A stretch of 64,000 nucleotides of DNA from an uncultured Clostridium sp. (GTDB taxonomy: Bacteria; Bacillota; Clostridia; TANB77; CAG-508): NCBI GenBank assembly GCA_930982035.1, contig CAKNJL010000003.1, positions 858 through 64,857 of the forward strand. Reading direction: 5' to 3'. The notes beneath the pieces are model-generated. The model searched no databases, was not told the origin of the DNA, and worked only from the letters and a program-made list of their open reading frames with translations. Each line of letters begins with the position of its first letter. Position 1 is the first letter of the stretch. Of the stretch, positions 4,691 through 38,516 are shown one piece after another. Position numbers and translations under genes: made by a program.

Positions 4691-5239
4691 CTATATACTT
4701 TGAAAATAACTAATTATACCATTATATATTCCCCATGCTAATTGATTTTGATATTCATCTTGTTGAAGTTCTTTTTCTTCCTGCTGATTAGAAAGAAATC
4801 CACATTCTACAATTGATATTGGTATTTCTACATGTTTCATAATATATATTGTATTTAATTTCATAGCAATTCTATTATTTTCTTTTTGAATCGTTTCATT
4901 TAAGTTTCCTTGTATTTGTTCTGCAAGTTCTTTACTTTTTTCATTTTTTGTATTGTAAAATGTTTGCCAACCATAATATTGTTGTTGACTAATTTTATTT
5001 AAATGTATTGAAACAAATATGTCTGCTGATGATTCATTTCCTATTTTTACTCTATTATGAATATCTGAAACCTTTTTTTGTCTTAATGTTTTTGAGTCTA
5101 AATCATATATAGCATTTTCATCTGACCTTGTTAAAATTACTGTACATCCTGATTGCTCTAAGAGTTGTTGTAGTTTCAATGCTATTTTTAAATTAATTTG
5201 TGCTTCTGTTGTTCCATTACTACTTTCTGCTCCGTTCAT
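4691..5239 (-). CDS. Amidase_3 N-acetylmuramoyl-L-alanine amidase (CwlD-like), 3' portion of a gene interrupted by an integrated element; 5' portion at 21561..21764
   Basis: ADIFVSIHLN and surrounding Amidase_3 motifs; ORF lacks signal peptide and the IDAGHGG start of the domain; upstream in-frame stop 8 codons before Met. Confidence 0.8.
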   Translation of the reverse strand: MNGAESSNGTTEAQINLKIALKLQQLLEQSGCTVILTRSDENAIYDLDSKTLRQKKVSDIHNRVKIGNESSADIFVSIHLNKISQQQYYGWQTFYNTKNEKSKELAEQIQGNLNETIQKENNRIAMKLNTIYIMKHVEIPISIVECGFLSNQQEEKELQQDEYQNQLAWGIYNGIISYFQSI

Positions 5240-5307: not shown

Positions 5308-6825
5308 TTAAAAATTAAATTCTATCTCAACTTTCTTATCTTCATATACTTCAATTCTATTTATTACTTGTTTTAATATTTCATTTGTGAATTCTTTACC
5401 TTGTTTAAAATCCATAATAATTTTCTTTAAGTTTTCTTCTGATATTTTGCTTTTATTCTTTTCTTGTAATTGTTCTAAAGATTTTTTAGTTTCTTTTAAT
5501 TTACTTTTAAATTCATCATACTGCAATTTAAAGTCTTTTATTGATATTTTTCCATCTACTCTTTTACTATATAGTTTTTTCATTTCATTATCTATTTTCG
5601 TTTCATTGTTTTTGAGTAATTTCATTTGCTTATAAGTTATATCATTTTTTCTATATTCATCAGTAATTTTATTTGTGGCTATATTAATATTTATTGTATT
5701 CAATTTTTGTTTTACAGCATTTAATACTATTTCATTTAATGTACTCTCCATAATCGTATGTCCTTTGTCACATATACTAGGAAATTTATAAATCATTCTA
5801 CATTTAAAATACCAACATTTTTGAGGATTATCTAACACCTTATTTCTTATTTTAGTTCTTGTTCTATATTTATATTGCATTCTTGCCCTGCAATGTCCAC
5901 AATATACCAATTCTTTTAATAAATACTCATATTTGTTTTTAGGTTTATAAAACTTCTCTTTCAGCATTTTTTGTACTTTGTCAAATTGTTCTTGTGAAAT
6001 TATCGCTTCATGTGTATTCTCTTTAAAAATCCATTCTTCTTTGGGTGTTTTATATTTTTTCTTTGTTCTGTAATCTGTATATATTTTATTTATTATCATC
6101 TTACCTGTATAAAATGGATCTTTTAGAATTCTACTTATACTATCACTTCGCCATTCATTAATTGCTACCTTTTGCCCTTTATATTTTTTTGGTGTATCAA
6201 TTTTCATTTTAGTTAAATATTTTGCAATTTCTCCTTGTGAATGTCCTTGTAAATACATTTCATATATCAATTTCACATTATCAGCCACTTTTTCATCTAT
6301 AACCACTTTGTACTTATTTTCATCATCTTTCTTATATCCATAAGGTACATTTTTTTCAACATATTTTCCTTGTTTTTTCATATCAGTTTTTACAGATTTT
6401 ATCTTCTTAGAAATATCTGCAATATAACTTTGATTCATTATCCCTCTTAGCATTATAGTATCATCAATTTCATATCTTTCGCCACTATCTATAAATTCTG
6501 TTACAGAAATTAGTCTAACATCATTATCTGGGAAAAAAACTTCAGTATAATAACCTGTTTTATTTTTATCTCTAGTTAATCTCGATAAATCTTTAATAAT
6601 AACCATGTCTATTTTTTTTCTTAAAATATCTACTATCATTTTATTTAAAGCTGGTCTTGAGTCTAAAATACCTGAATATCCATTATCTACATATTCATTA
6701 ATTACATTAATATTATGTTTTTTAGCATAGTTTAAAGTAATATCTCTTTGTGCCTCTATACTATTATTCGTATTTGTATCTTCTTTTGATAGTCTTAAAT
6801 AAATTCCTGCTTTATATTCTTTCAT
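5308..6825 (-). CDS. large serine recombinase (resolvase catalytic domain + recombinase domain + zinc ribbon + coiled coil)
   Basis: N-term GIYLRLSKEDTN...DLSRLTRD catalytic domain, C-terminal CGHC.. zinc ribbon, 505 aa; 63 bp from element left junction. Confidence 0.85.
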   Translation of the reverse strand: MKEYKAGIYLRLSKEDTNTNNSIEAQRDITLNYAKKHNINVINEYVDNGYSGILDSRPALNKMIVDILRKKIDMVIIKDLSRLTRDKNKTGYYTEVFFPDNDVRLISVTEFIDSGERYEIDDTIMLRGIMNQSYIADISKKIKSVKTDMKKQGKYVEKNVPYGYKKDDENKYKVVIDEKVADNVKLIYEMYLQGHSQGEIAKYLTKMKIDTPKKYKGQKVAINEWRSDSISRILKDPFYTGKMIINKIYTDYRTKKKYKTPKEEWIFKENTHEAIISQEQFDKVQKMLKEKFYKPKNKYEYLLKELVYCGHCRARMQYKYRTRTKIRNKVLDNPQKCWYFKCRMIYKFPSICDKGHTIMESTLNEIVLNAVKQKLNTININIATNKITDEYRKNDITYKQMKLLKNNETKIDNEMKKLYSKRVDGKISIKDFKLQYDEFKSKLKETKKSLEQLQEKNKSKISEENLKKIIMDFKQGKEFTNEILKQVINRIEVYEDKKVEIEFNF

Positions 6826-6843
6826 AGTTATTCCATTCTAAAA

Positions 6844-8409
6844 CTATAATTTATCAAAAACATTATATTTGTAATTAATATAAATTTTATTTTCCTTGTC
6901 AATTTCTATATTGTAAATAATCTCAGATAATTTATCTCTATCCCAGTTTTCAATATTAGATAATTCATTCATAATAGATATTAATCTTTCTTTTGTTATT
7001 ATTGGTCTTTTTTCCTTTTCTTTTAAAATAGAATTAAGATTATTCTTTATGTTTGTTCTTCGTTCTATTTCTGTTTTATAGAATCTTTTATAATCATCAA
7101 TTTCTATAATATCATTTTTATAATCTTCATATAGTGAAGTTATTGTCTTATCAGTTTTCTCAAGTTGCTTTTCAAGAATTTTTATATTATCATCATATAC
7201 CTTTGTACTATTTTCTTTATACTGATTTAAAATTAAGTTTTCTAATTTATCGCTTTTACTTATATTGCTTAGCTTTTCTTTTACATTTCCTATAACTATT
7301 TTTTCAACTATTGTTTCATCAATTGCTTTGTACTTTCTGTTACAATCAGTAGTATTATTCTTTCTTACAGCAGTTCCACAATATATTTTTTTGGACTTAA
7401 TATTTCCATTTTTATTTCGATTTACTTTAATTACCATTTTTGTTCCACATTCTTTGCAAAATACAATTCCATTTAATTTCCATTCATATTTTCTATGCCT
7501 TGTTTTTTTATGAACACTTAATTTAGTTTGGACTCTTTCAAATTGTTCTTTTGAAATAATTGGCTGATGTGTATTTTCTACAATTTGCCATTCTTCTCTT
7601 GGTATAATTTTTACTTTTTTCGATTTATAACTTAGATTAATCTTTTTGCCATACTCTGTATGCCCAATATAGACTTTGTTTTTTAGAATCCTACTAATAG
7701 CCTCATCTCTCCAATTATAATCTCCGTTTTTAGCCCCTCCAAAATCGTAATAATCTGGACAATATATTTGTTGTTCTTTTAAATACTTGGCAATATCAGT
7801 AATCTTTTTTCCTTCATCATACATATTAAAAATCTTTTTTATAACTCTCGCTTGCTCTTTATCTATCTCTAATTTATTTTTATTATCTTTGCTTTTTTTA
7901 TATCCATAAGGAGCTTTTGCTGCTAAATACATTCCTTTTTCTTTTCTAGCCCATACACCGCTTCTTACTTTCCTTGAAATATCTTTACTATACCAGTCAT
8001 TAATTAGAGTTTTAAATTGTATCATATCATTATTTGAGTTTTTTAAATATGTATCTACATTATCTAAAATAGAAATGTACCTAATATTTTTTTCTAAAAA
8101 ATATATTTCTATGTAATAGTTAGCTTCAAAACTATTTCTTGAAAGCCTTGATAAGTCTTTAGTTATAACAGTATTAACGACACCATTTTCAATATCTGTA
8201 ATCATTTTTTTAAATGAAGGTCTATCTGTATTTAAACCAGTATATCCATCATCTATGTATAAATCATATAATTCAAATTCTTTTCCCAACTCTTTTATTT
8301 TATTTTCTATAATGCTTTTTTGACTAACAATACTATCACTTTCTTCCTTATCACCATCTTCCTTTGATAATCTTAAATAACCTGCCACTTTATATTTTGT
8401 ATTTTCCAT
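6844..8409 (-). CDS. large serine recombinase, second tandem copy (CcrA/CcrB-like pair arrangement)
   Basis: AGYLRLSKEDGD...DLSRLSRN, Cys-rich ribbon CKECGTK...C, 521 aa. Confidence 0.85.
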   Translation of the reverse strand: MENTKYKVAGYLRLSKEDGDKEESDSIVSQKSIIENKIKELGKEFELYDLYIDDGYTGLNTDRPSFKKMITDIENGVVNTVITKDLSRLSRNSFEANYYIEIYFLEKNIRYISILDNVDTYLKNSNNDMIQFKTLINDWYSKDISRKVRSGVWARKEKGMYLAAKAPYGYKKSKDNKNKLEIDKEQARVIKKIFNMYDEGKKITDIAKYLKEQQIYCPDYYDFGGAKNGDYNWRDEAISRILKNKVYIGHTEYGKKINLSYKSKKVKIIPREEWQIVENTHQPIISKEQFERVQTKLSVHKKTRHRKYEWKLNGIVFCKECGTKMVIKVNRNKNGNIKSKKIYCGTAVRKNNTTDCNRKYKAIDETIVEKIVIGNVKEKLSNISKSDKLENLILNQYKENSTKVYDDNIKILEKQLEKTDKTITSLYEDYKNDIIEIDDYKRFYKTEIERRTNIKNNLNSILKEKEKRPIITKERLISIMNELSNIENWDRDKLSEIIYNIEIDKENKIYINYKYNVFDKL

Positions 8410-9051: not shown

Positions 9052-9258
9052 ATGGATTTTTATATTGCTTTTGATAAAAATAGTAATACCGAATTTCTAT
9101 TATATAGGGATATGATTCATAAAGATAAAACTGATAAAACAGATGAACTTTATTATTCTGAACCTGTGTTCAAATGTAAAGTTATGCCAATTGGAACTTT
9201 CCTTTTAAATTTTTTAAATACAGATTTTAAAAGTAGAGATATTCGGAACTTTTATTAG
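9052..9258 (+). CDS. hypothetical small protein, possibly 5' part of a frameshifted gene continuing at 9377
   Basis: 68-aa ORF, different frame from downstream ORF, 118-nt gap. Confidence 0.25.
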   Translation: MDFYIAFDKNSNTEFLLYRDMIHKDKTDKTDELYYSEPVFKCKVMPIGTFLLNFLNTDFKSRDIRNFY

Positions 9259-9376
9259 CAAATATTGCTATTCATCTTTATATTATCCAAAATATCCCGA
9301 AAAGATAAAATCTGGAATTAATTTTATTGGTCTTGAATTAAATAAAAAAGATTATCTTTTAGGATTATTCGAACTT

Positions 9377-10171
9377 ATGCGTTCTGAAGAAGAACATTTT
9401 ATTAATGTCCAACATACATTTTTTAAACATTTGAATTTACCTTATGATAAGTCAATTGTAGATGATATTGAAGAAGATTATGATGATATACCTGCTACTC
9501 CTGAAGAAATAGAATTTGATAAAAAGTGGGATGAATATTTTGAGCAAAAAAGTAATCTAGCCCAAAAAAGACTTGATTTATTTAAGAAAAAATATCCCAA
9601 ATTATATGATGAGTATGAAAAACAACATTATAATCGTTTACAAAACTATAATGCAGAAAATGATATTATTGAAATCTCTGGATTAATAAATAGTTTAGCA
9701 TTAGACTTTACTTTTGGTGCATATTATTTATGTGGATATAATTTACCTTTGTATAATATACCTTATTGTTTTTGTAGTTCTGATGTTATAAGTATTTTAG
9801 CAATTGAATTTAAAGAGTTTATATCAGATAAACGCCATGTAATTAAGCAATGTAAAAATTGTGGAAGGTATTTTATTCCAGAAAATTTAAGGGATATTAA
9901 ATATTGTAATAATATTTTTAAAAATAACAAGACTTGTAAAGAATTAGGAAAACAACTAAGTTATAAAAAATCATTAAAAAACGATAAGTTACTTGATATG
10001 TATAGAAAAAGGTATCTTTCTTTGGCTAGTTCTGTTTCTCATTATGGTACTGAAAAAGCAATTGAAAGGTTTGAAAATTATAAAAAAGATGGAGCTATTA
10101 TGAAGAAGAAATATTTAGATAAGGAAATTAGTGCGAAAGAGTTTGAAAAGTGGATAAAAAATGCAAAATAA
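9377..10171 (+). CDS. hypothetical protein with CxxC...C zinc-ribbon-like motif
   Basis: 264 aa, CKNCGRYF...C motif; only plus-strand gene in this part of element. Confidence 0.4.
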   Translation: MRSEEEHFINVQHTFFKHLNLPYDKSIVDDIEEDYDDIPATPEEIEFDKKWDEYFEQKSNLAQKRLDLFKKKYPKLYDEYEKQHYNRLQNYNAENDIIEISGLINSLALDFTFGAYYLCGYNLPLYNIPYCFCSSDVISILAIEFKEFISDKRHVIKQCKNCGRYFIPENLRDIKYCNNIFKNNKTCKELGKQLSYKKSLKNDKLLDMYRKRYLSLASSVSHYGTEKAIERFENYKKDGAIMKKKYLDKEISAKEFEKWIKNAK

Positions 10172-10446
10172 TAATGTATAACATGATTTATGTAAAAATT
10201 ATAAGAATAAATATAAGAATATTAAATTTTACAATATAAGATAAAAGAAAGAGTAGTATATATTGTTAAATCAAACATTATATACTACTCCTTTTAACTT
10301 AGTCTTTCGGGTCTCTAACAACAGTTCTAAATGTAATGTTTGGGCTATCTTTTTCTGGATCTGCCCATGTTCTAAAAATAGGTGTATGTTTTTCTTTTTT
10401 CTTTATTAGTATTATTGTAATACTGTTGATTGTTTTGCTAATATAA

Positions 10447-11145
10447 TTATGATATGCATTTTTCTTCTCCAAAAATTCTACTTGCTTCAACTTGATTATA
10501 TAATGCCTTTTCTTTATCATAATAAAAAGCCCATTCTTTATCTCCGTATGAAAAATGCCACCATTCTCCATCATAAGGAGCAAATCCTTCTTTCATCATT
10601 ATTCTTCTTAATATTTTTCTATTGTTCTTTGCTTCTTCTGATATATCGTCAGCTTCATAATAGCATTGTGTAGTGCTATAATCTAATATTTCTGAACCAA
10701 AATCTAATATTCTATTTTCTTTACTATCATATATTGCTGCATCAACTGCTCCACCAGTTGGATGTCCTGAAACAAGTGGTACTGCAATTTTTTCATGTAT
10801 ATATTCATACATTTCCATTTCGTCTTGAAAATTTTCCTTTACCTCTTCTAGTATTTCATTAAAGTATCTTTCTTGTTTTTTCATATCTCTAAATCCATAT
10901 ACTACTATTACTTTATAATTTGCATTTATTTCTTTTAAATCTTTTGCAACATTTATAAGTTTTTCATATACTGTTTTTCTTACAGCAATTTGATGTCCAT
11001 ATTCTAACATATTTCTTCTTTCTTGATATCTTCCAATTACCAAATCATCTTCTAATGGAAGTAATACAAATTCTTCCTTATCTGTTTTTTCATCATATTC
11101 CTCTATTGTTATTAAATCTTCATATCTTACAAAATTATTTGCCAT
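10447..11145 (-). CDS. D-Ala-D-Ala dipeptidase (VanX/DdpX family, peptidase M15D)
   Basis: SGHPTGGAVDAAIYD and EWWHFSY motifs (Zn ligands/catalytic Glu of VanX family), 232 aa. Confidence 0.75.
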   Translation of the reverse strand: MANNFVRYEDLITIEEYDEKTDKEEFVLLPLEDDLVIGRYQERRNMLEYGHQIAVRKTVYEKLINVAKDLKEINANYKVIVVYGFRDMKKQERYFNEILEEVKENFQDEMEMYEYIHEKIAVPLVSGHPTGGAVDAAIYDSKENRILDFGSEILDYSTTQCYYEADDISEEAKNNRKILRRIMMKEGFAPYDGEWWHFSYGDKEWAFYYDKEKALYNQVEASRIFGEEKCIS

Positions 11146-11166
11146 TTGTTTATTGCACTTTCCTTC

Positions 11167-13323
11167 CTAATCTTTATTTTTTGCTTTTTGCACTACCGTT
11201 ATAGTTTCTTCTAATGTAATGGTATTTTGTTCTCCTGAACTCATATCTTTTAATGTTATTACATTATTTTTTATTTCATCTTCTCCTATAATTATTACAT
11301 ATCTTGCATTAATATTATTTGCATATTTAAATTTTTTTCCTAATTTTTGTTGTTCTATATTAATTTGTACATTTATATCTTCTTCTCTTAACTTTGAAGC
11401 TATTTTTGCACACATTTCACAATCTTCTGTCATTGAAATTATTAATACATCTGTAATTGATTCCTCATTTGCTGAAATTATTTCATTATCTACTAATTGA
11501 AAAAATAATCTTGATAGTCCTATTGAAATTCCTACTCCTGGCATCTTTCTTTCTGTATAATATTCTGTTAAATTATCATATCTTCCTCCTGAACATATAC
11601 TTCCTAAATTTTTATATTGATTTAGAAATGTTTCATAAACTGTTCCTGTATAATAATCTAATCCCCTAGCTATAGTTAAATCAATTTTATAATTTTCTTC
11701 TGGAACTCCAAAAATTTTGATAAATTTTGAAACTTCTTTGATTTCATTTATCCCCTCTTTAAAAATTGCATTATCAATATTCATACTTTCTAAAGCTTGA
11801 ATTTTTTCTTCATTTTTTCCTTTTATTTCTAAAAATTGCATTATTACATCAACTTTCTTCTCTGGTATAGATATTAATAATTCTCTTCTTACTTCTTCTT
11901 TTCCTATTTTCTCTATTTTATCAATTATTCTTAATATCTCAGGCGATATATCTTCAAGTTCTAAACTTGAAAACAATCCATTTAATATTTTTCTGTTATT
12001 AATACAAATCGTAAAATCATCAAATCCAAGTTTTTTAAAAGTATTATATATAATAGATGGAATTTCTGCATCATTTATTATAGATAATTCTCCATCACCA
12101 ATAATATCAACATCACATTGATAAAACTCTCTATATCTTCCTCTTTGTGGTTTTTCCCCTCGATATACTTTTCCTATTTGATATCTTTTAAAAGGAAAAC
12201 TTAATTTATCATAGTACTCCGTTACATATTTAGCTAAAGGAACTGTCAAATCAAATCTAAGAGCTAAGTCATTTTCACCTTTTTTCAATTTATATATTTG
12301 TTTTTCTGTTTCTCCACCTGCTTTTGCAAGTAAAACATTAGCATCTTCTATTATTGGCGTGTCTAATGGCAAAAATCCATATTTTTCATAAGATTTTTTT
12401 ATTATTTCTTTCATTTTATTAAATAAAATTTGTTCTTTTGGTAATAATTCCATAAAGCCTGGTAAAGTTTTTGGTTGTACCTTTCCTTTCATTATAATTC
12501 CTCCTTCAATTTGGTATGTCTTTCCGTCAGTTTCAACATTGCCTAAGATAGTAGCTTTTTTTAAACTGCCTTCATCATAGATTATATCTGCTGTAATAAT
12601 CAGTCCTGAAGGTTGTAAAATATCAATTTTTACACTTTGCTTTTTTAAATAAGCCTCTACCATACATGTAGCGGTGGTACCAGATCCACAAGCAGTTTCA
12701 TAAAATAGTGTATTTATTTCTTTAACCCAAACAATTGGATTTATTTTTATTACACCTTCTACATTTTCACAGAACATAACCCCTACTGCTTCACTATATT
12801 CAAGATGATATTTATGAATAAAATTCATTCCCATTGCTTTTAAATTATCTTTATTTACAAGATATTTTTTAGCAATTTCATCCTGAATTACTACAGTTAC
12901 CATACCATTCATTTTTACAATAAAAATTCCTAGTTCTTTTTCAGTGATTACATCATCACCATGATAAAGTGGAATTTCGCACCATGCTTTTCCTTCTTTA
13001 TCAACTCCAGCATTGATTAAGTCCTTAGAATTTACAAACATTTGTAAATCTCCCGGCTTTCCATTTAAGAAAATGGATGCTGCGCTTCTTGTTGCATTAC
13101 CACAAAACTCTCCTCCTGCCATTTGTAATTCCGGTTTAGGATTTAATTCGATAAATCCTACCTGTTCGACATTAGGATGTTTTGCCATAATCAAATCGTT
13201 GATTTTCTTTCTCTGTTTTTGCGTATATCCTAATCCATAGACAAAAGCTGTATCATTACCAGCAGGTCTATAAATTGAATATTTCACATTAGTTACAGAC
13301 ACTTTGCAAAGTTTCTCGCTCAT
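11167..13323 (-). CDS. fusion protein: N-terminal diaminopimelate-epimerase-fold domain (DapF-like, histidine-racemase-like) + complete class II histidyl-tRNA synthetase-like region with anticodon-binding domain
   Basis: N-term PAGNDTAFV (GNDF motif), first Cys FCGNATR, second Cys TACGSGTTA = DapF two-base fold; then HisRS motif 2 RGRYREFYQCDVDIIG, GGRYD, ARGLDYYTGTVYE, C-terminal HGTP_anticodon-like LGKKFKYANNINARYVIIIGEDE; no T-box leader upstream. Confidence 0.6.
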   Translation of the reverse strand: MSEKLCKVSVTNVKYSIYRPAGNDTAFVYGLGYTQKQRKKINDLIMAKHPNVEQVGFIELNPKPELQMAGGEFCGNATRSAASIFLNGKPGDLQMFVNSKDLINAGVDKEGKAWCEIPLYHGDDVITEKELGIFIVKMNGMVTVVIQDEIAKKYLVNKDNLKAMGMNFIHKYHLEYSEAVGVMFCENVEGVIKINPIVWVKEINTLFYETACGSGTTATCMVEAYLKKQSVKIDILQPSGLIITADIIYDEGSLKKATILGNVETDGKTYQIEGGIIMKGKVQPKTLPGFMELLPKEQILFNKMKEIIKKSYEKYGFLPLDTPIIEDANVLLAKAGGETEKQIYKLKKGENDLALRFDLTVPLAKYVTEYYDKLSFPFKRYQIGKVYRGEKPQRGRYREFYQCDVDIIGDGELSIINDAEIPSIIYNTFKKLGFDDFTICINNRKILNGLFSSLELEDISPEILRIIDKIEKIGKEEVRRELLISIPEKKVDVIMQFLEIKGKNEEKIQALESMNIDNAIFKEGINEIKEVSKFIKIFGVPEENYKIDLTIARGLDYYTGTVYETFLNQYKNLGSICSGGRYDNLTEYYTERKMPGVGISIGLSRLFFQLVDNEIISANEESITDVLIISMTEDCEMCAKIASKLREEDINVQINIEQQKLGKKFKYANNINARYVIIIGEDEIKNNVITLKDMSSGEQNTITLEETITVVQKAKNKD

Positions 13324-13587
13324 AATGTTCTCCTTTAATCAAAAAAGCTATATAGTTAAACAATATCTTTTATATAAATATTATTTACCTATATAGCTTT
13401 ATATTTTATTTTTATATAGGCACATCAAAATTGACTTGTGCCCATTACTAATTAGACACAAGTTTAAAAATGATGATGCACTTTGTTTATATTCTTACTT
13501 TTAAACTTCATTTTTATTCCTCTTTTTTCTAATTTTTTTATAATAATACACTATTTTTCAATATATGTCAAGTATAAATCAACATAA

Positions 13588-14902
13588 TGTTAAAGTTTTT
13601 TAGAAATGTCCTAATATAGTTTTCAGAAATGTCCTGTTTTTTATTAAATATTTTTAATGTATAATTCATCTCAGATTGGAGGTGATTTTTTTATGAAGAA
13701 CAAAAAATATGCATTACAATTGCTAAAAGATAAGATTAATGGAGAAAGGCTAATCTCTTTTGTTTCTATTTCCGAATTATCTGGATATTCTGAAAGACAA
13801 ATTAGACGTTGGTCAAAAGACATTGAAAATAGGGATATTGATTCTCTCCTTATTCACGCTAGTAAGGGCAAAACTCCCAATAATGCCGCTAGCAATACCG
13901 AACTAGAATATCTTAAGGATTTTAAGAAACAATATCCTAATATCAGTATATCACAATTTATGGACATCTACCACGAAGATATAATTTTCAATCCTGATAA
14001 ATCGGATGATGTTTATGAATTTAAGCTCAGAAAACGTAGTTACTCATTCTTTAAAGATTTTTATCGTAATAATGGTTATAAATCTCCCAGAAAACATAGA
14101 TGTTTTAAAGGTAAAGACTCCCATCCTTTGCGTGAACCATCTCCTAGAAGAGGTATTTTAATTATGATTGACGGTACTCCACATGATTGGTTTGAAAATG
14201 GTAAAAAATTTTCTTTGCATTTAGCTGTTGATGATGCTACAGGAGAAATTTTAGCTGGATGGTTTATGCCTACTGAATGTCTAGAAGGCTATTGTTATAT
14301 GCTTATAATTTTAATTCAAAAACATGGTATACCTGAAAATATATATTCTGATAAGCATACAATATTTAAAAGCCCTGTAGATGGAAATTTGACTCAATTT
14401 GGGCGTATGTCAGTAACATTTTTTGCATTAAAGAAAAAAGGAAAATACTAGATGGTTGTGTGTTTTCATATTCTAATAATTATTACCAATTGCTTGATGA
14501 GAATGGTGTAATAGTTAAAATTTTCAAAGGTACTGATATAACTGTAATGGAAGATATATTTGACCATACAATTAGAGCTGAATATCGAAAAAAAGTTTAT
14601 TCTACTAGGCAAATTGCTGGACATAGACAAGACCCTGTAAAAAGACAACAAAAAATTCAAAATCAAAAGGAACTTGATGAATACTTGCGATCACAAAACC
14701 AAAATAACTAGGTTATATGTTGTCAATGAAAGAAACGTATAAAATGACATACTTCTTGGCTTAGCTCCTTTATGCCGTTTCTGTAATTGTACAACATGAT
14801 GTAAATTTATAATTTTGTATAGGTGGTTAATCACATACTTTGTGATAACCACCTTAGTTACTTTATAAATTTCAAACCGGACATTTCTAAAAGACTTTAA
14901 CA
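13588..14902 (+). mobile_element. IS element, IS1202/ISNCY-like, 1315 bp, with 24-bp terminal inverted repeats and 16-17 bp target-site duplication
   Basis: IRL tgttaaagttttttagaaatgtcc (13588-13611) vs IRR ggacatttctaaaagactttaaca (14879-14902); direct repeats (a)gtataaatcaacataa at 13571-13587 and 14903-14919. Confidence 0.6.
13657..14711 (+). pseudogene. IS transposase (DDE, IS1202-group-like), interrupted by stop/frame change at 14451-14460
   Basis: N-terminal HTH (SGYSERQIRRWS), DDE-like region ILIMIDGTPHDWFE...LHLAVDDATGEIL; second ORF 14460..14711 continues the protein. Confidence 0.5.
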
Positions 14903-14923
14903 GTATAAATCAACATAAGTTTT

Positions 14924-15244
14924 CTAGTTTGGCAATATTAACTTTATTGAAGTTGTTGTAAAAATACTAACTATTTTTGAATTTACTACTTTATCCAAAT
15001 TTGGAATTCTATAAGCAATAAAACCAAATAGCGGTATTGCAAGTGAATTTGCTACAGCCCAAATAATAAATGGAATCCAACCTTTTGTTTGTACAGTTTC
15101 CATTCCTACCACTAATGATGTTCCCCATGCCCATGTTGCCGCTAAAGACATTGCATAAAATAATGTAGTGTTTCTTTTTAATAATCCTTTCATAATTTTT
15201 TTAATTCTACAATACTGTGAATTAATATTCCCCCCCTTAATCAC
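14924..15244 (-). pseudogene. N-terminal fragment of a polytopic membrane transporter, truncated next to the IS
   Basis: 106 aa with 2-3 TM helices only, ends 5 bp beyond IS target duplication; 8-nt overlap with upstream S66 peptidase gene suggests former operon. Confidence 0.4.
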
Positions 15245-16232
15245 TAAATTTTATCTCTATATTTTTATCTTTTGCTACTATATTAGCATTTCCTCCTATT
15301 GGAAATGTAAATATTGGAGTTGTATGTCCTATATCTGCATTAATTATTATAGGTATATTTTGTAACTCTGATTTACTTTCGATTATTTTATTCCATTTAT
15401 CATAGTTCATCTCTGAAACATTCTCTGCTCTTCCTATTACTAATCCTTTTATTTTTTTTCCTTTTGCACAATGTAACAATGATTGTAAATTTCTATCAAA
15501 TTCTTTAATAAATGCTTTTCCTGTTTCTCCATCATCTTCAATAAATAGAATTGAATTATCTAAATCAGGCATATATTCTGTTCCTTGTAATAGATTTAAT
15601 GTGCATAAATTACCACCTATTATTTTTCCCTCTGCTTCTCCTTCATTTATTATTTTCATTCCTTCATTATTAATAAAATTCCTATCTTCTTGATTTTTTA
15701 GCCATTTATCATTACTCCATTGTTTCGAAGTTAATACTTCTATTTTCTTATTTTCAAAAAACATTTTTTTAAAATATTCCATTGAATAGTCAAACCCATA
15801 TTTCATGCCAAAACTAAAAAATTGTACTCCAAGATATGTAATTACCTTTGTTTTAGCATATATAGCATTTACTAATGCTGTAATATCAGAAAAACCACAT
15901 ATTATTTTAGGATTTTCTTGTATTAACTTATAATCTATATAGTCTAGTATTTGATTTACATTATATCCACCTATTACTGTCATAACTGCTTTAACGTTCT
16001 TGTCTTTAAAAGCTTCATGTAAATCTTCTATTCTCTCCTCTATTGTTGCACATTTAAAGTATTCATCTTTATATTTCATCACATTCTTTCCAAATGTAAC
16101 TTTGAGACCTAATCTCTCTAATCTTTCAGTTGCTAATTTTATAACATCTTCTTTTAATACTCTCATACTTCTTGACGGAGCTATTATTCTTATTTCATCA
16201 CCCATTTTTAATTTTTCTGGAACAATTTTCAT
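15237..16232 (-). CDS. LD-carboxypeptidase, peptidase S66 family (LdcA/MccF-like)
   Basis: 331 aa; GFSDITAL (nucleophile Ser), C-terminal E...H triad region ADIGHTTP; family includes murein tetrapeptide LD-carboxypeptidase and microcin C7 immunity protein MccF. Confidence 0.7.
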   Translation of the reverse strand: MKIVPEKLKMGDEIRIIAPSRSMRVLKEDVIKLATERLERLGLKVTFGKNVMKYKDEYFKCATIEERIEDLHEAFKDKNVKAVMTVIGGYNVNQILDYIDYKLIQENPKIICGFSDITALVNAIYAKTKVITYLGVQFFSFGMKYGFDYSMEYFKKMFFENKKIEVLTSKQWSNDKWLKNQEDRNFINNEGMKIINEGEAEGKIIGGNLCTLNLLQGTEYMPDLDNSILFIEDDGETGKAFIKEFDRNLQSLLHCAKGKKIKGLVIGRAENVSEMNYDKWNKIIESKSELQNIPIIINADIGHTTPIFTFPIGGNANIVAKDKNIEIKFSD

Positions 16233-16318
16233 TATTTTCCCTCCTTTGTATAAATTTCGATGATATTATATCATAGGTTTTCTGATTTGTAAATGTTTTA
16301 TGTTAATTTTGACATAGG

Positions 16319-16957: not shown

Positions 16958-18229
16958 TTATATTTCCTCTTCTTCTTCAAACCAATTAAAACTACTAGAA
17001 TTCTTATTTTTCAAATACCATTCTTTTATAGCTTGTTTTGATAAACTCTTTTTCCAACCTTTTATTTTTCTTGGGTGCTTTATATTATTAGGTCTAGTCA
17101 TATTTGCTAATATATCAATTGCTATTAATGTAATAGAGTTATTATCCAACCTGCTATAATCCCTATAATTATCGCTATAAAAATTGTCTTTATTTTGAAA
17201 GCCATATTTTTTTCCTTGTATTTCTCTTCTTGATGTATAAATTCGTTCATCTTGTCCGTAACAATTGTTTCCACATTCTCTATCAATTTTTCTTGTAAAT
17301 CGTTCATAATGTTCTGTATTTCTTGCTTGTCCTTTTTCAAAGTTGTCCTTATTTCGTTTATATCTTCTGTCGCTTGTTTGTTCCAAATTATCATTTCTGT
17401 TATTATATCTGGATCTAGTAACATATATTTCATTATTATTGGTGTTTGTGTCATTTGTTGTTCTTCCGGTATATGTATTTGATTTTTCTTCTTTAATTCT
17501 TCCATTGATGGCATTTTCCATCTCCTCCTTTAAATATTTTTTATCATTTAATTTATTATCTCTACATTTCATTCCCTCAGGTGTTGTATAAGTTATATAT
17601 TTTCTTTTTTTAGTCCATAAAACTTGATATCCTAATTTATTCATATTCTTAAAAAATTCGGTTTTATTTTTACTTTTTTCTAATGAATAATCAATGGCAT
17701 TTGCTAATTTCATTTTCCAACTTTGCCCTTTTAATGCTACTTGATATTCATTTTTATTATATATTCCTTGATATTTTTTCTTTTCTATTATTTCTAGTCC
17801 CTCTTCTTTACAGAATTTATCGGAATAATCTTTTACTTTTTGCATATCATTTTTTGATTGATTAAATTTCTTTCCATTTTCAAAATTAACAGAATTTACA
17901 ATCAAATGATTATGTATATGCTTTCTATCAGTATGTGTAGCAACTAATACTTGAAAACCTTGAAAATAGTTTGCAAGTTTTATTCCTATTTCATGTGCTT
18001 TTTGAAAATCTAAATCATCTTTTGGACTAAATGATTGAACAATATGTATATATTGCCTTCCTCCATTTTTATTATAAAATTCTTTAACTGTTTTCATTTC
18101 TTCCAAACAACTATTGGCAACACAATCTTTTCCTGTTATTAAATTCGCATTTGTTTTATCTGTCCTTGTAACATAATCTATTATCGTTTTTAACTCTGCT
18201 TTTGAATTAGTAAATTTAATAATTGCCAA
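16958..18229 (-). CDS. relaxase/mobilisation nuclease (MobA/MobL family)
   Basis: HIHIVQSF...HTDRKHIHNHLIVNSVN three-His motif of MOB relaxases. Confidence 0.8.
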   Translation of the reverse strand: MAIIKFTNSKAELKTIIDYVTRTDKTNANLITGKDCVANSCLEEMKTVKEFYNKNGGRQYIHIVQSFSPKDDLDFQKAHEIGIKLANYFQGFQVLVATHTDRKHIHNHLIVNSVNFENGKKFNQSKNDMQKVKDYSDKFCKEEGLEIIEKKKYQGIYNKNEYQVALKGQSWKMKLANAIDYSLEKSKNKTEFFKNMNKLGYQVLWTKKRKYITYTTPEGMKCRDNKLNDKKYLKEEMENAINGRIKEEKSNTYTGRTTNDTNTNNNEIYVTRSRYNNRNDNLEQTSDRRYKRNKDNFEKGQARNTEHYERFTRKIDRECGNNCYGQDERIYTSRREIQGKKYGFQNKDNFYSDNYRDYSRLDNNSITLIAIDILANMTRPNNIKHPRKIKGWKKSLSKQAIKEWYLKNKNSSSFNWFEEEEEI

Positions 18230-33248: not shown

Positions 33249-36200
33249 TTATAACACAAATCTCTTAATTAGGACTATTCCTCCTGCTAATGTTCCTAAC
33301 ACTGTAAATCCTAATGTAAAATACATTACTGCTCTACCTGTTTCTATTGATAACAATACTGGGGCGTCATCTATATCGTCTTCTCCCTCTACTTGGTTAT
33401 CTGGTGTTGAGTCTCTATCTGGTACTCCTTTGTCATTATAGTCTTCTGATATTTCTGCTATATTTGTCATTTGTCCCATATTGTCTTCTCCATTTATCCA
33501 TGTTAATACTACTTCCACTTCTGCTGACTCTCCTGGTTGTAATAATGTATTTTCCAATAATCTTGTTGATATTATATTATTTCCTTCATCTGTCCAGCCT
33601 GGATTATCTTCTGCTACAAACATTAGTCCTTCTGGTACATAGTCTGTTATTTCTTTTGCATATCCTGCTATGTCTCCTTCGTTTGTTACTCTTATTTTGT
33701 ATCTGAATTTTACTGTTACATCATTTAAGTTCTTTCTATATAATTCTACTTTTACTACTGGCTCTGGATCCATTTCTGCTGTGTGTCCTGTTTGTGTTAC
33801 TGTTTCTTTTCCGTCTTCTATTACTATTGCTTCTGTTACCCATTTTCTTAATGCTAAATCAAAATATGTTAGTTTGATATATTCTCTATCTTGGTCATCT
33901 TCTCCTTCATTCCATTCATTTGGTGTTGAGTCTATATCTTCTACTGGATTTCCATTTTCATCACTATCTTCTGATATCTGTGCTGAGTTTACTATTATTC
34001 TGTCTGAACCATTTGGCTCTACTACTTCAAATGCTATTTTTACATCTCTATAATCTGGATTTCCTTCTCCTATTGGCTCATCTGGGTTAAATGCTTGTAA
34101 TAGATTTTCTCCTTCTGTCTCTTCTTGTTCTTTTGATAAATAATCTGTTCTTATTTCTACTGCTTCGTCTACATTTTCTGTTACATTTCCTTCTTCATCA
34201 TACATTACCCATCTGTATTCTACATTTGTTGCATTTTCTGGTAAGAATCTTAGTCCGTCTGGTATATCATCTGTTATTTCACTTGCATATCCTGCCATAT
34301 CACCTTCGTTAAATACTCTTATTGTATATTCTACTACATTTCCTGTCACTACTTCTACTGGGTCTTTTGTATGATTATATGTTATTTGATTTTCTTCTCT
34401 GTTATAACTTACCTCTGGTACTCTTGTTGTCACTTCTCCTTCATCTACTTTTGTGATGAATTTTCTTAATGCTAAATCAAATTCTTTTTCTTCTATTATT
34501 ACTTTTTCGAAGTCATCATCATCTTCTTGTCCTGGTACATAATCTTTGTCTATTTCATCATCTTTATATCCTGGTAAGTCTTCTGGTATTTCTATATTGT
34601 CTGGCGTTGAATCTTTGTCTGGCACACCTTCTTCATTGTAATCATCTGTTATTTCTGCTAAGTTTGTTAGTTTTACATTTGTTTGTGCTGTCTCTTTTAC
34701 CTTACATGCTACTTTTACTTCTTTGTAGTCTAATGTTGTTCCATCAAATGCTTTTATTAGATTTTGTCTTTGTTCTGTCTCTTTTTCTCTTGATAAATAG
34801 TCTGTTTTTATTTCTACTGCTTCTTCTGCATTTTCTGTTACATTCCCTTCTGCGTTATACATTACCCATTCATATTGTTGATTTGTTTCATGTTCTGGTA
34901 AAAACTCTAGTCCTTCTGGTATATAATCTGTTACTTCTTCTGCATATCCGTCTATTTCTCCTTCATTATATACTCTTATTGTGTATATGATTTCACTATT
35001 TTTACTTACTGTTACTGGTTGTTTTGGATGATTATATGTTGCTGTTCCTTCACTTTCTATTGTACTTGTATCTACTACTGGCTCTCTATTATATGATGTT
35101 CCATCTACTTTACTTATAAATTTTCTTAATGCTAAATCAAATTCTTTTATTTCTTTATTTGGTACTGTTATTGTAATTATATTCCCATTTAAAGAAACTT
35201 TTGCTCCTTGGTCTCCTCCTGATGTTAAACTTACATTTGTTGCTTCATATGTATTACTGTCTTCTCCACTTACTCCTTTTTCTACTTCTACTGTTATATT
35301 TCCTACTATTATATTATATCCTTCTGGGGCTCTTGTTTCTGTTATTGTTATACTATCTGTTCCCGCTTGTGTAATTTGCACTGTCCCTAGATTTAATATT
35401 CCATTTACTGTTGTTCCTGTTTGAGCAGTGCTTTGCCCTGGTAATGTCCAACTAAATCCTGCTCCTGATGTCGTTATTAGATTTCCATCCTCATCTACTT
35501 TTTGTAATTGTAATTCATATGAACCTGTTCTTTCTGATACTAATACTTTTTCGAAGTCATCATCATCTTCTTGTCCTGGGATGTATTGATCTCCTCTTTC
35601 TATTTCTTCATCTCTATATCCTGGTAAATCTTCTGGTATTTGCAAATTATCTGGTGTTGAATCTTTATCTGGTTCATTATAGTCATTATAATCATCTGTT
35701 ATTTCTGCTAAATTTGTTAATTTTACATTTGATTCAACATCTGCTTTTACTTTACATACTACTTGTATTTCTTTATAACTTAATGTTTCTCCATCAAATG
35801 CTTTTATTAAATTCTGTCTTTGATCTGTTTCTTTTTCTTTAGATAAATAATCTGTTTTTATTTCTACTGCTTCTTCTGCATTTTGTGTTATATTTCCTTC
35901 TGCATTATACATTACCCATTCATATTGTTGATTTACTCCATTCTCTGGTAAAAATTCTAATCCTTCTGGTATATAATCTGTTACTTCTTCTGCATATCCG
36001 TCTATTTCTCCTTCATTATATACTCTTATTGTGTATGTTATTTCACTTTCTCTGTTTACTCTAATTGGTTCTTTTGTGTGATTATATGTCCCTGTTCCTT
36101 CACTTTTTATTGTACTTGTATCTACATTTGGTTGTCTATTATATGATGTTCCATCTACTTCACTTATAAATTTTCTTAATGCTAAATCGAATTCTTTTAT

Positions 36201-38312
36201 TTCTTTATTTGAAATTGTTATCTTTATTACTCCATTTTCTAGACTTGCACTCGCATTTGTATTTTCTGGAACAACTTTTGCATCTGTTACTGTATAAATT
36301 CCATTTACTAGTTCTTTTGTTATCTCTACTGTTATGTTTCCTATTAATGGATTGTATCCTGTTGGTGGATTTGTCTCTGTTATCGTTATTGTATCTGTTC
36401 CTGTTTGTGTAATTTCTACTGTTCCTAAATCTAGTAATCCATTTGCAGTAGTTCCTGTTCTATCTTGTTCTTCTCCTGGTAATCTCCAACTAAATCCTGC
36501 ATTTGATGTTGTTATTAGATTTCCATTTTCATCTACTTTTTGTAATTGTAATTTATAATTTCCTTCTGCCTTTGGTATTATTATTTTTTCAAAATCATCA
36601 TCATCTTGTTGTCCTGCAAAATAACTATTATTATCTGTTATGTCTTTTCCATTATTACTTGCATTTCCTCTATATCCTTCATCTTCAGTTACTAATTGGT
36701 CTTTTGTTTGTGTTTGTATCGTTGATGGTTCTGAATCTCTGTCTTTTCCTACTTCTGTTGTTATTGTTTCTCCTGTTACTCCATCTACTTCTTCTGCTAT
36801 CCATGCGATATTTGTTAATATTTTATTATTTGCTCCTGCTGTCCCTGTTACTTTACATTTTATTTGTATTACTTCTGAACTTAATGTTGTTCCATTATAT
36901 GCTGGTAAATTAGTTGTATTTCCTGATTTCCTTGTCAATGTTAATGTATTATTTGTTTGATCATATCCCCCTGCTAATACTTCAAAGTCTCCACTTACCA
37001 CTTCCGTAAATTCTAATCCTTCTGGTAATTGGTCTACTATTTTTGTTGCTCTTCCTTCTTTTTCTCCTTCATTATATATGCTTATACTATATGTAATATA
37101 ATCTCCTGTACTTACTACTACTGGGTCTTTTCTGTTATAATATTCTGCTGTTGTTGTTGTTCCTTGTATTGTTGTTTGATTTATATTTTTAACTGTTCCA
37201 TCTGTATTTAATTGTCTTTCTGCATTTTCTCCTTCTAGATTCGTAATTCCTTTTCCTGTTCCTTCACTATTTGTTATTGATACTATTGATTTTCTTAATG
37301 CTAAATCAAATTCTTGTGGATTTCTTTCTACTTTCATTAATGGTTGTGCATCTCTTTGTTTTGTTGAAGCATACAATATTAATTTATTTTTATGTTTAAC
37401 GTTTGAATCGGCATATTGATTTGCATTTGCTTTTGCTGTTTTTATTAGGTAATTATATAACTTTACAGCTTGTTGTTGTCTTGCATTACCTGCACCTTGA
37501 TCTTCAAATGTTGCCCCTGTTGGGTTATAACTTGCTAAATTTTGGTAAGTTGAAGAATCTGTTGTATAAAATAGCCATGATGACTCATCTGTTTTATCAT
37601 ATTTTCTTTCATCACCATACATTTCATCATAATTTGTAAAATACCATATTGCTGCTTGTTGAACTGACTCTATTTCATCATCTGTTATATAAAACTGTTC
37701 TTCTCCTTCTACTCCTTCAAATTCCTCCCATATATCTGTTACTTTTGCTTGTGTTAATAATTCTTCTCTTTCTGTTTCTGTTGATTCTCCTGGTAAATAA
37801 ATCAAATTAGCTAATGCAAGTAATTCATTATAATGTCCTCCATTTACAAGATTATATAATATTTTATTACTTGTACTTTCATCTTCTTTTGCTATTTGGT
37901 CTCTTTCTGTATACATATCAAATTCTAAGTCATATTCTTGTGTACCTCTTATACCTTCTCCTTCTGTAAATCCTACTCCAGCTTTTACACAATACACATT
38001 AACTTTCATTGGATTAGTTGCAGATGATGTATTATATTGCACAATATTCCATATTTTTGCAGATGGTCCCCCTGTTGTTCCATCGCCATTTGCTTTTGGA
38101 TCTCCAATTGAATACCCTATATTACTTCCTACTTCAATTTCTTGTATTCCAAAATATAGTGATGGATTCATTTGTTTAGCTTCTACTACATTATTCAATA
38201 AGCTTATAATTAAAATAATTATAAAAATAATAATTCCTTTTATTCTATTCATACTAGTTTTCCTCCAATAATTCTTTATTATAAGTATAATCGATTTTAT
38301 AAGTATTTTCAA
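33249..38312 (-). CDS. large surface adhesin: signal peptide, N-terminal thioester-like (TQXA-type) domain, multiple DUF11 and SpaA/CnaB-type isopeptide-fold repeats, C-terminal ETG + TM + KRFVL sorting signal
   Basis: YCVKAGVGF (Cys) and SVQQAAIWYF (Gln) motifs; repeats GDYITYSISIYNEGE..IVDQLPEGLEF (DUF11); ITITETNPPTGYN; C-term LLSIETGRAVMYFTLGFTVLGTLAGGIVLIKRFVL. Confidence 0.7.
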   Translation of the reverse strand: MKILIKSIILIIKNYWRKTSMNRIKGIIIFIIILIISLLNNVVEAKQMNPSLYFGIQEIEVGSNIGYSIGDPKANGDGTTGGPSAKIWNIVQYNTSSATNPMKVNVYCVKAGVGFTEGEGIRGTQEYDLEFDMYTERDQIAKEDESTSNKILYNLVNGGHYNELLALANLIYLPGESTETEREELLTQAKVTDIWEEFEGVEGEEQFYITDDEIESVQQAAIWYFTNYDEMYGDERKYDKTDESSWLFYTTDSSTYQNLASYNPTGATFEDQGAGNARQQQAVKLYNYLIKTAKANANQYADSNVKHKNKLILYASTKQRDAQPLMKVERNPQEFDLALRKSIVSITNSEGTGKGITNLEGENAERQLNTDGTVKNINQTTIQGTTTTAEYYNRKDPVVVSTGDYITYSISIYNEGEKEGRATKIVDQLPEGLEFTEVVSGDFEVLAGGYDQTNNTLTLTRKSGNTTNLPAYNGTTLSSEVIQIKCKVTGTAGANNKILTNIAWIAEEVDGVTGETITTEVGKDRDSEPSTIQTQTKDQLVTEDEGYRGNASNNGKDITDNNSYFAGQQDDDDFEKIIIPKAEGNYKLQLQKVDENGNLITTSNAGFSWRLPGEEQDRTGTTANGLLDLGTVEITQTGTDTITITETNPPTGYNPLIGNITVEITKELVNGIYTVTDAKVVPENTNASASLENGVIKITISNKEIKEFDLALRKFISEVDGTSYNRQPNVDTSTIKSEGTGTYNHTKEPIRVNRESEITYTIRVYNEGEIDGYAEEVTDYIPEGLEFLPENGVNQQYEWVMYNAEGNITQNAEEAVEIKTDYLSKEKETDQRQNLIKAFDGETLSYKEIQVVCKVKADVESNVKLTNLAEITDDYNDYNEPDKDSTPDNLQIPEDLPGYRDEEIERGDQYIPGQEDDDDFEKVLVSERTGSYELQLQKVDEDGNLITTSGAGFSWTLPGQSTAQTGTTVNGILNLGTVQITQAGTDSITITETRAPEGYNIIVGNITVEVEKGVSGEDSNTYEATNVSLTSGGDQGAKVSLNGNIITITVPNKEIKEFDLALRKFISKVDGTSYNREPVVDTSTIESEGTATYNHPKQPVTVSKNSEIIYTIRVYNEGEIDGYAEEVTDYIPEGLEFLPEHETNQQYEWVMYNAEGNVTENAEEAVEIKTDYLSREKETEQRQNLIKAFDGTTLDYKEVKVACKVKETAQTNVKLTNLAEITDDYNEEGVPDKDSTPDNIEIPEDLPGYKDDEIDKDYVPGQEDDDDFEKVIIEEKEFDLALRKFITKVDEGEVTTRVPEVSYNREENQITYNHTKDPVEVVTGNVVEYTIRVFNEGDMAGYASEITDDIPDGLRFLPENATNVEYRWVMYDEEGNVTENVDEAVEIRTDYLSKEQEETEGENLLQAFNPDEPIGEGNPDYRDVKIAFEVVEPNGSDRIIVNSAQISEDSDENGNPVEDIDSTPNEWNEGEDDQDREYIKLTYFDLALRKWVTEAIVIEDGKETVTQTGHTAEMDPEPVVKVELYRKNLNDVTVKFRYKIRVTNEGDIAGYAKEITDYVPEGLMFVAEDNPGWTDEGNNIISTRLLENTLLQPGESAEVEVVLTWINGEDNMGQMTNIAEISEDYNDKGVPDRDSTPDNQVEGEDDIDDAPVLLSIETGRAVMYFTLGFTVLGTLAGGIVLIKRFVL

Positions 38313-38516
38313 TAGTAAATTTAGCTATTTTTATTATTATTTATTCTACCTTAGGGAAATAGCCTTTTCAGTTTTACAATATCATTACAATTTCTTTAAA
38401 TTTTTATTACAAATAAAACTATTGAACAATAACGAGCATTTTTGACGTTTTTCCAAAAAAAGAGAATATTTTTCTATTTAATAGTTAAAATATTCTCTTT
38501 TTTTATTAATTATCTT

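Follow-up and report, generated by a model that had tools for sequence, protein, structure and literature searches.

A histidine-racemase-like protein joined to histidyl-tRNA synthetase, probably by deletion, in a predicted histidine-responsive operon on a mobile element

Introduction

When a single reading frame holds a histidine-racemase-like domain and a complete histidyl-tRNA synthetase (HisRS), is the protein an enzyme shaped by selection to couple two activities, or an accident within a partnership that does not depend on it? The question is raised by a 718-residue open reading frame (ORF) in a 64,000-nucleotide stretch of contig CAKNJL010000003.1 from an uncultured Clostridium sp., referred to here in its entirety as the window. 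The initial annotation of this DNA read the architecture as a sign of coupled racemisation and adenylation or tRNA charging. Part of that proposal stands, in that a partnership between racemase and HisRS is indicated by gene neighbourhood, tRNA-His genes, leader peptides with three consecutive histidines (HHH) and fusions in the reverse order; a fusion shaped for coupling is contradicted by a deletion scar, a linker that is a Shine-Dalgarno (SD) sequence, and alleles with one additional T. The best overall explanation, to which we give a probability of about 0.72, is a deletion-made join within a histidine-responsive operon that acts as a histidine salvage and charging module. Loci and contigs used for comparison are given by L numbers and proteins by P numbers.

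The fused gene and its two halves

The features of the fused gene are as follows.

11167..13323, minus strand: fused ORF, 718 aa with an ATG start, racemase-like domain plus HisRS
12505..13323, minus strand: racemase-like domain, residues 1-273, CntK/HisR-like, of the two-cysteine type independent of pyridoxal phosphate
12490..12504, minus strand: linker and hisS SD region, GGAGG, 7-nt spacer and ATG (Met278), read as GGII-M
11167..12492, minus strand: HisRS part, residues 278-718, with class II catalytic core, histidine-pocket motifs and anticodon-binding domain

All motifs quoted in the initial annotation are found in this ORF. GND lies at residues 22-24, FCGNATR at 73-79 and TACGSGTTA at 210-218; in the HisRS part, RGRYREFYQCDVDIIG lies at 394-409, ARGLDYYTG at 552-560 and GGRYD at 579-583. 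Five other public contigs encode an identical 718-aa protein, and two more encode a version that differs by five substitutions. Full-text literature searches returned no paper on a HisRS-racemase fusion or linkage, in agreement with the earlier statement that no characterised protein has this architecture.

Profile searches identify the C-terminal half as a complete canonical HisRS, as had been claimed. Residues 286-703 score 410.5 bits against TIGR00442 (hisS), for which the cut-off is 286.75, and Pfam places tRNA-synt_His at 289-606 and HGTP_anticodon at 625-713 (E 8.1e-20). The top database match for the whole ORF is a free-standing HisRS of 441 aa from Clostridium sp. CAG:440 (P0001), to which residues 278-718 are identical at 439 of 441 positions. 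Within the window there is no second hisS, and a search of known plasmids and phages gave nothing beyond generic hisS similarity.

The N-terminal half is recognisable as a complete histidine-racemase-like enzyme with putative L-/D-histidine interconverting activity, for which its place in a predicted histidine regulon and its linkage to HisRS and tRNA-His speak indirectly, and the assignment to a DapF-like fold of histidine-racemase type is borne out by three kinds of comparison. Both NCBIfam histidine-racemase models match over residues 12-265 (CntK, E 3.7e-21; HisR, E 6.7e-20), and among solved structures the closest by sequence is HisR (PDB 9cr6, E 8e-15), with both catalytic cysteines aligned. 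An AF2 model of residues 1-273 (pLDDT 93.4) has the two-domain alpha/beta fold of DapF, and in a Foldseek search against the PDB its top nine matches are CntK and HisR (E 5e-20 to 1.5e-15, TM 0.66-0.76); diaminopimelate epimerases follow at about 1e-11, some six orders of magnitude behind. The predicted catalytic residues, Cys74 in GGEFCGNATR and Cys212 in YETACGSGTTA, align with Cys67 and Cys209 of HisR and are invariant across 27 homologues. Glu65, Glu206 and Glu49 have been proposed to bind the imidazole in HisR (PMC11602996), and their counterparts here, Glu72, Glu209 and Glu53, are likewise invariant in the 27 homologues aligned. According to precomputed Pfam matches the domain belongs to CntK_N, of which it is a distinct, deeper branch. 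Judged from their sequences, then, both domains are complete and retain their catalytic residues.

Origin of the join

The history of the join becomes legible when the window is set beside contigs that carry the free-standing HisRS P0001. Their gene order is a first HisRS gene (HisRS#1), a 94-aa ORF, a 310-nt leader, hisZ, hisG, a 454-aa racemase joined to a GNAT acetyltransferase domain, hisIE, a second HisRS gene (HisRS#2, encoding P0001), an M15 dipeptidase and then, as in the window, DUF6076 and two serine recombinases. This full operon, with a free 441-aa HisRS, is present in L001-L006, L099 and L100. It recurs at 77-81% DNA identity in L008, where racemase and GNAT are separate genes, no mobile genes are found, and the setting is chromosomal, between a tRNA-His gene and yebC/spoIIIA. 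Residues 1-273 of the fused protein are 97% identical to the same residues of the 454-aa racemase-GNAT protein of L001.

Compared by blastn, the window is a shortened version of this operon. Positions 13582..13328 correspond to L001 1886..2138 (leader), 13336..12505 to L001 3851..4682 (racemase), and 12510..10405 to L001 5984..8089 (hisS and M15); otherwise the window is collinear with the full-operon contigs, with clean gaps only. The two junctions that matter for the fused gene are these.

13328..13336, minus strand: deletion junction 1, coinciding with the SD of the racemase start; a 9-nt blastn overlap within AAGGAGAA
12505..12510, minus strand: deletion junction 2; racemase codon 273 runs directly into the sequence that precedes hisS

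At junction 1 hisZ-hisG have been lost (about 1.7 kb in L001), and the leader abuts the racemase gene. At junction 2 the GNAT domain and hisIE are gone, about 1.3 kb (L001 4683..5983), and a third gap has removed a 225-aa gene that follows M15. The microhomologies at the junctions are SD-like: AAGGAGAA at one, and ATTGAA/ATTAA beside GG(A/G)GG at the other. Since the downstream end of the racemase gene was deleted at junction 2, its reading frame continues through the hisS ribosome-binding site into hisS. The racemase frame passes here through GAAGGAGGAATTATA-ATG, so that the GGII linker is an in-frame translation of the hisS SD and spacer, GGAGGAATTATA-ATG. A free 441-aa HisRS is probably still initiated from this SD and ATG.

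The fused state is polymorphic. L015-L017 carry the same scar, but their spacer, GGAGGAATTTATAATG, has one T more. The two ORFs are therefore in different frames, and these sisters encode a separate 296-aa racemase and a 441-aa HisRS. This two-ORF allele is found on about ten contigs from several independent assemblies. One long contig with the additional T (L015:8833-10150) has its hisS and serine recombinase genes broken up into a number of short ORFs, which could be decay of that copy of the element or lower-quality assembly. The fused form is confined to a clade of DNA at least 95% identical (L007, L018). Because the full operon is present in the divergent, chromosomal L008 and the scarred form only within that clade, the direction of change is clear.

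The domain-architecture lookup that had been proposed as a check speaks against an evolved fusion. Among the 120 best homologues of either half none has the racemase-to-HisRS order: the HisRS homologues are all 424-454 aa long, and the racemase homologues are stand-alone proteins (about 241-341 aa) or racemase-GNAT proteins (about 454 aa). The order is also absent from the best 150 representatives (50% clusters) of a library of 1.84 billion proteins. Among species-representative genomes the element was not found, and the best match is an 80% relative in which racemase, leader, hisS and M15 are separate. Two proteins considered as fusions of the same order, P0488 (696 aa) and P0521 (726 aa), were rejected, as their N-terminal part is a SLOG/LOG-like domain (LDcluster4) in front of a full HisRS; they represent another HisRS architecture, unrelated to the racemase. 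The order is thus not conserved in divergent homologues, the linker contains an SD and an ATG, and the fused state is not fixed. The comparison points very strongly to a recent, accidental microhomology deletion as the origin of the join, as opposed to an evolved bifunctional enzyme, and the fusion would be tolerated rather than selected.

Some further features of the parent operon were recorded. L099:332-1615 encodes a third HisRS-like paralogue of 427 aa with the tRNA-synt_His catalytic domain only; it lies upstream of HisRS#1 in full-operon contigs and adjoins panC and purD. Between HisRS#1, which is PRK12420-like, and the leader is a conserved ORF of 94-98 aa with no family match (L001:1549-1833, L008:2228-2524). 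A comparison of the GNAT with the PDB returned generic N-acetyltransferases only and was uninformative.

A wider partnership of racemase and HisRS

If the join is accidental, the association of the two genes is not restricted to it. In 80 metagenome loci with racemase homologues (35-97% identity, mean length 6 kb), the commonest neighbour is a VanX-like M15 gene, present in 36 and usually adjacent; HisRS is present in 24, a recognisable GNAT in 16, and M15 together with HisRS in 13. The neighbourhood is conserved across loci whose racemases share only 35-45% identity, and the trio of racemase, hisS and M15 occurs as separate genes in L019 and several distant loci. When tRNA genes were scanned in these 80 loci and the earlier ones, 10 of the 19 found were tRNA-His. 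Those beside racemase, M15 or HisRS modules include the following.

L008:500-575; L118:3883-3958; L120:1608-1683; L121:2545-2621: tRNA-His
L140:6458-6533; L143:5-81: tRNA-His
L154:1788-2728: tRNA-His, three copies

The racemase family has been fused, depending on lineage, to GNAT, to M20 or to HisRS. L175 contains a 695-aa ORF in which HisRS comes first and the racemase forms the C-terminal part, and a search with this protein revealed a family of about 60 clusters (685-708 aa, 56-100% identity) for which precomputed Pfam matches give tRNA-synt_His, HGTP_anticodon and CntK_N. An alignment of this family shows conservation of the HisRS motifs and of both racemase cysteine motifs, with a seamless junction whose length varies. 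The examples inspected, listed below, occupy ordinary chromosomal settings; an HHH-type leader precedes them and an M20 peptidase comes next.

L175:2126-4213; L181:6001-8076; L183:6001-8079: HisRS-to-racemase fusions of about 691 aa (proteins P0255-P0331)

A racemase fused to an M20 (ArgE/DapE-like) peptidase, 649 aa, is encoded at L155:501-2450.

The conserved neighbourhood, the enrichment of tRNA-His, the shared HHH leaders and the fusion family of opposite order all support a functional partnership between racemase and HisRS, which on this comparative evidence does appear to be real, widespread and uncharacterised.

A predicted leader-peptide attenuator

The operon in the window is preceded by a region with the elements of a transcription attenuator.

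13543..13571, minus strand: sigma-70-type promoter, TTGACA, 17 nt, TATTAT
13464..13511, minus strand: leader peptide ORF MKFKSKNINKVHHHF with stop codon, 15 codons, ending VHHHF; read from the sequence
13434..13463, minus strand: hairpin P1 (segments 1 and 2), from RNA folding, beginning right after the leader stop codon
13413..13427, minus strand: switch segment 3, UGAUGUGCCUAUAUA, from constraint folding of eight leaders in three ribosome states
13341..13400, minus strand: intrinsic terminator, a 24-bp interrupted stem and U-run, -22.7 kcal/mol

The promoter is the best match in 10300..13700, agreeing at 11 of 12 positions, and is conserved in L001 and L008. The leader ORF has an SD, AGAGGA, at 13523..13518 and three consecutive His codons at 13478..13470. 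Relative to shuffled sequences the terminator has z = -6.2 and the whole leader z = -7.4. Short peptides with HHH close to their end also stand upstream of racemase, HisRS or M15 genes in other loci: MNIMLTVNKVHHHFYTCA in L008; MKDIRLLNEAHHHIKPVSLQ in L019, directly before hisS; MNFKIFLNQLHHHCRSL in L011, before a bare racemase-M15 pair; and MKSNIFLNQLHHHRRSL in L175 and L181, before the genes for HisRS-to-racemase fusions. In L001 too the leader encodes HHH, in L106 and L169 such leaders precede racemase genes, and the leader of L183 has HHY instead of HHH. In total, leaders of HHH type were found in at least 9 divergent loci, compared with 2 such ORFs on the control strand.

A model with four segments was dropped in favour of one with three states when RNAalifold found a helix between segments 2 and 3, that is, between the 3' arm of P1 and the switch segment, conserved in nine leaders; one of its pairs covaries, being AU in four sequences and GC in four. 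Segment 3 has three alternative partners, namely the His codons, the 3' arm of P1 and the 5' arm of the terminator, with which it forms an antiterminator. Eight leaders, truncated before the 3' arm of the terminator, were folded under constraints with masks for the ribosome. Without a ribosome, the switch segment is paired to the His codons. A ribosome stalled on the first His codon allows P1 to form, and the terminator's 5' arm is bound by the switch segment. Once the ribosome has reached the stop codon, it is the 3' arm of P1 that binds the switch segment, and the terminator arm is free. When the complete leader is folded at equilibrium the terminator always forms, and the switch is seen only with truncated transcripts and ribosome masks.

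In silico, then, the leader combines a translatable ORF of tandem His codons with mutually exclusive structures that depend on ribosome position, and control of the operon by a His-codon leader attenuator is, as a computational prediction, probable. The promoter, the HHH leader peptide and the switchable terminator lead us to infer that a shortage of charged tRNA-His induces the operon. Under such a shortage the ribosome would stall on the three His codons and leave P1 intact, so that segment 3 is free to sequester the 5' arm of the terminator, and transcription would read through. A ribosome that reaches the stop codon would melt P1, segment 2 would capture segment 3, and the terminator would form.

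T-boxes are the usual control of hisS in Firmicutes. The initial annotation had noted that a T-box leader is missing, and this holds, but a predicted His-codon attenuator lies upstream: no T-box (RF00230) was found in the window, L001, L008, L009 or 18 further loci, nothing in the window reached Rfam gathering thresholds, and nothing relevant appeared at E<=10 in 13250..13650.

Operon remnant and mobile element

What is left of the operon in the window is the leader, the fused racemase-hisS gene and M15. The features that define its end and its surroundings are the following.

10447..11145, minus strand: VanX-like M15 zinc dipeptidase, last gene of the operon (Pfam Peptidase_M15, 1.9e-18)
13588..14901, plus strand: insertion sequence (IS), about 1.3 kb, whose transposase is disrupted into ORFs 13657..14451 and 14460..14711
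5308..8409, minus strand: two large serine recombinases (Pfam Resolvase, Recombinase, Zn_ribbon_recom), element context
16958..18229, minus strand: MobA/VirD2-type relaxase, element context

The M15 protein keeps the zinc and catalytic motifs of VanX, SGHPTGGAVD and EWWH, and matches the VanX structure 1r44 (E 2.7e-10). The ends of the IS are inverted over 23 bp, and its target duplication is a 17-bp direct repeat, TTATGTTGATTTATACT. The IS sits 17 bp upstream of the -35 box of the operon, and neither of the sister contigs, L018 and L015, has it.

The location in accessory DNA, claimed earlier, is supported by the flanks. On one side of the operon, at about 15.2-19.3 kb, is a module of relaxase, MobC and helix-turn-helix genes with an S66 peptidase, the MobC/NikA-like gene lying just upstream of the relaxase as in L007; on the other, at 5.3-10.2 kb, are DUF6076 and the two recombinases, and the IS adjoins. 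The DNA shared with L018 and L015 spans 4714 to 21604 and the flanks beyond differ, while tuf and fusA at 46.8-50.5 kb are chromosomal. With recombinase and relaxase modules, MobC, an FtsK-like ATPase and differing genomic flanks, the operon remnant is by its gene content the cargo of an integrative, mobilisable element in a low-GC, gut Clostridia-like bacterium. The minus strand encodes, at 24096..28745, an FtsK/SpoIIIE ATPase of 1549 aa that includes an FHA domain and, at 33249..42038, two surface proteins of 1687 and 1173 aa with thioester (TED) and DUF11 domains; these proteins probably serve the same element in conjugation and adhesion. Enzymes acting on cell-wall peptides are abundant in the window: M15, an Amidase_3 protein (4691..5239), an S11 D-Ala-D-Ala carboxypeptidase (42844..44148) and an S66 peptidase of the LD-carboxypeptidase/MccF family. 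The gene for the last (14924..16232, minus strand) lies just upstream of the operon and has an overlapping 106-aa ORF.

Relation to known systems

The closest characterised relatives of the racemase half are HisR of Fusobacterium nucleatum (PDB 9cr1/9cr6) and CntK of Staphylococcus aureus (PDB 6jis). They share its fold, the pair of cysteines and the imidazole glutamates; however, identity is only 21-25%, and their settings are different, with cntKLM or a folate-gene neighbourhood for hisR, in contrast to HisRS, tRNA-His, M15/M20, GNAT and an HHH leader here. The synthetase half resembles canonical hisS in its score above the TIGR00442 cut-off, motif 2, the histidine-pocket motifs and the anticodon-binding domain, and differs in its 277-residue N-terminal racemase extension, its leader-peptide attenuator and its place on a mobile element. 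The HisRS-to-racemase family of about 691 aa has the same two domains, an HHH leader and a metallopeptidase neighbour, but the order is opposite, the linker has no internal SD or ATG, the HisRS is PRK12420-like, and the peptidase is M20 and not M15.

In the classical his attenuator, ribosome stalling leads to antitermination. The leader described here shares with the enterobacterial hisL attenuator (RF00514) the consecutive His codons, the alternative hairpins, a terminator before histidine genes and the stalling logic. It differs in giving no sequence or covariance match, in having three His codons where hisL has seven, in belonging to low-GC, Firmicutes-like genomes, and in controlling an aminoacyl-tRNA synthetase, a racemase and a dipeptidase as well as his genes. 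The M15 protein resembles the VanX/DdpX D-Ala-D-Ala dipeptidases (M15D) in zinc-ligand motifs and fold family; unlike them it scores 56.7 where the equivalog cut-off is 320, has no van ligase or dehydrogenase beside it, and is co-regulated with histidine genes.

Alternative explanations

The architecture could in principle be that of a selected bifunctional enzyme that channels histidine between the racemase site and the HisRS active site. Both domains are predicted to be complete and catalytically intact, the frame is kept in two haplotypes on seven contigs, and the large, independent and seamless HisRS-to-racemase family indicates that coupling has been favoured somewhere. The junction in the window is nevertheless a deletion scar whose linker is the hisS SD and spacer, a similar number of contigs carry the same scar with the additional T and two separate ORFs, and the racemase-to-HisRS architecture is limited to one clade at 95% identity or more, being absent from the 120 best homologues of each half and the 150 best representatives; we consider such an enzyme unlikely here. 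Even less credence is due to the idea that assembly or sequencing produced the fusion, for example by dropping a base from the T-run of the spacer. Fused and unfused forms do differ by one T in a short T-run, but the 718-aa product is found on five contigs and its variant on two, from different samples and assemblers, and the form with the additional T is likewise present in several assemblies; as product and variant recur on several public contigs, the chance that the fusion is spurious is close to nil.

Mobile aminoacyl-tRNA synthetase genes often confer resistance, the plasmid-borne ileS2/mupA being an example, and by analogy a mobile hisS with its helpers might protect against a HisRS inhibitor or histidine antimetabolite, with the HHH leader sensing the block in charging. 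Such a response would fit with an extra synthetase gene on a mobilisable element, with the S66 (MccF/LdcA-family) peptidase 2 kb upstream, with the pairing of GNAT and racemase in the parent operon, and with induction by uncharged tRNA-His. What makes this improbable is the HisRS itself. It belongs to the canonical TIGR00442 type, and its histidine-pocket motifs are unaltered; it agrees at 439 of 441 positions with its counterpart in the full operon, where panC and purD are the flanking genes, and is about 80% identical to a copy in a purely chromosomal operon. Because it is canonical and so close to the full-operon copy, resistance is not favoured. Moreover the presence of hisZG and hisIE in the parent operon points to a role in supplying histidine, the window copy has lost the GNAT, and we know of no natural HisRS-specific inhibitor. 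Very improbable, in our view, is a biosynthetic role in which D-histidine from the racemase goes into a product (a staphylopine-like opine metallophore, a component of the cell wall or a peptide), with HisRS and M15 in its service. CntK does supply D-histidine for staphylopine, and the M15 family acts on peptides containing D-amino acids; but no cntL- or cntM-like, ligase or nonribosomal peptide synthetase gene is present in the operon or the related loci inspected, and the starvation induction implied by the HHH leader would be counter-productive for a pathway that consumes L-histidine.

Several observations weigh against the explanation that we prefer, an accidental join in a histidine salvage and charging operon. 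The racemase half scores far under the equivalog cut-offs of the NCBIfam models (75.8 bits against 300 for NF033599, 71.9 against 400 for NF052224). The substrate of the racemase, the direction of flux, the substrate of M15 and the mechanism of attenuation are all things that we infer. In two leaders (L008 and L019) the state with no ribosome is not cleanly free of antiterminator. Salvage does not explain the GNAT beside the racemase in the parent operon and many other loci, and it presupposes a natural source of D-histidine or its dipeptides in the gut. As for the accidental nature of the join, two fused haplotypes five residues apart both keep the frame, and the family of reverse order shows that physical coupling is selectable, so that the fusion in the window may bring some benefit.

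Proposed function and significance

If the module is switched on when charged tRNA-His falls, its products should raise the level of His-tRNA-His. A route by which they might do so begins with the M15 dipeptidase (elsewhere M20), which would release histidine from dipeptides, possibly ones containing D-amino acids. The racemase would convert D-histidine to L-histidine, and HisRS would trap the L-histidine on tRNA-His and so pull the racemase equilibrium towards the L form. This particular sequence, from dipeptide through D/L-histidine and L-histidine to His-tRNA, falls a little short of an even bet. Removal of L-histidine by HisRS would be irreversible, and this may be why fusion was favoured in another lineage.

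A more specific proposal is put forward tentatively, with the odds leaning against it. The module would then consist of a racemase and a HisRS induced by histidine starvation, often with tRNA-His and M15 or M20, in which D-histidine, or histidine set free from unusual dipeptides, is racemised and passed straight on to HisRS; the conserved HisRS-to-racemase fusions and, by accident, the fusion in the window would be true bifunctional enzymes that racemise and charge. Were this correct, they would to our knowledge be the first case of an aminoacyl-tRNA synthetase physically coupled to an amino-acid racemase, and HisR-type racemases would have a physiological role.

Whether or not that proposal holds, the locus appears to have caught a gene fusion by microhomology deletion in the act, with a ribosome-binding site turned into a linker and a one-base indel that switches between fused and unfused states. 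If confirmed, leader-peptide attenuation would join the known controls of aminoacyl-tRNA synthetases in low-GC anaerobes. The physiological role of HisR-type racemases is still unknown (PMC11602996), and the salvage of D-histidine and dipeptides to feed tRNA charging offers a testable hypothesis for it.

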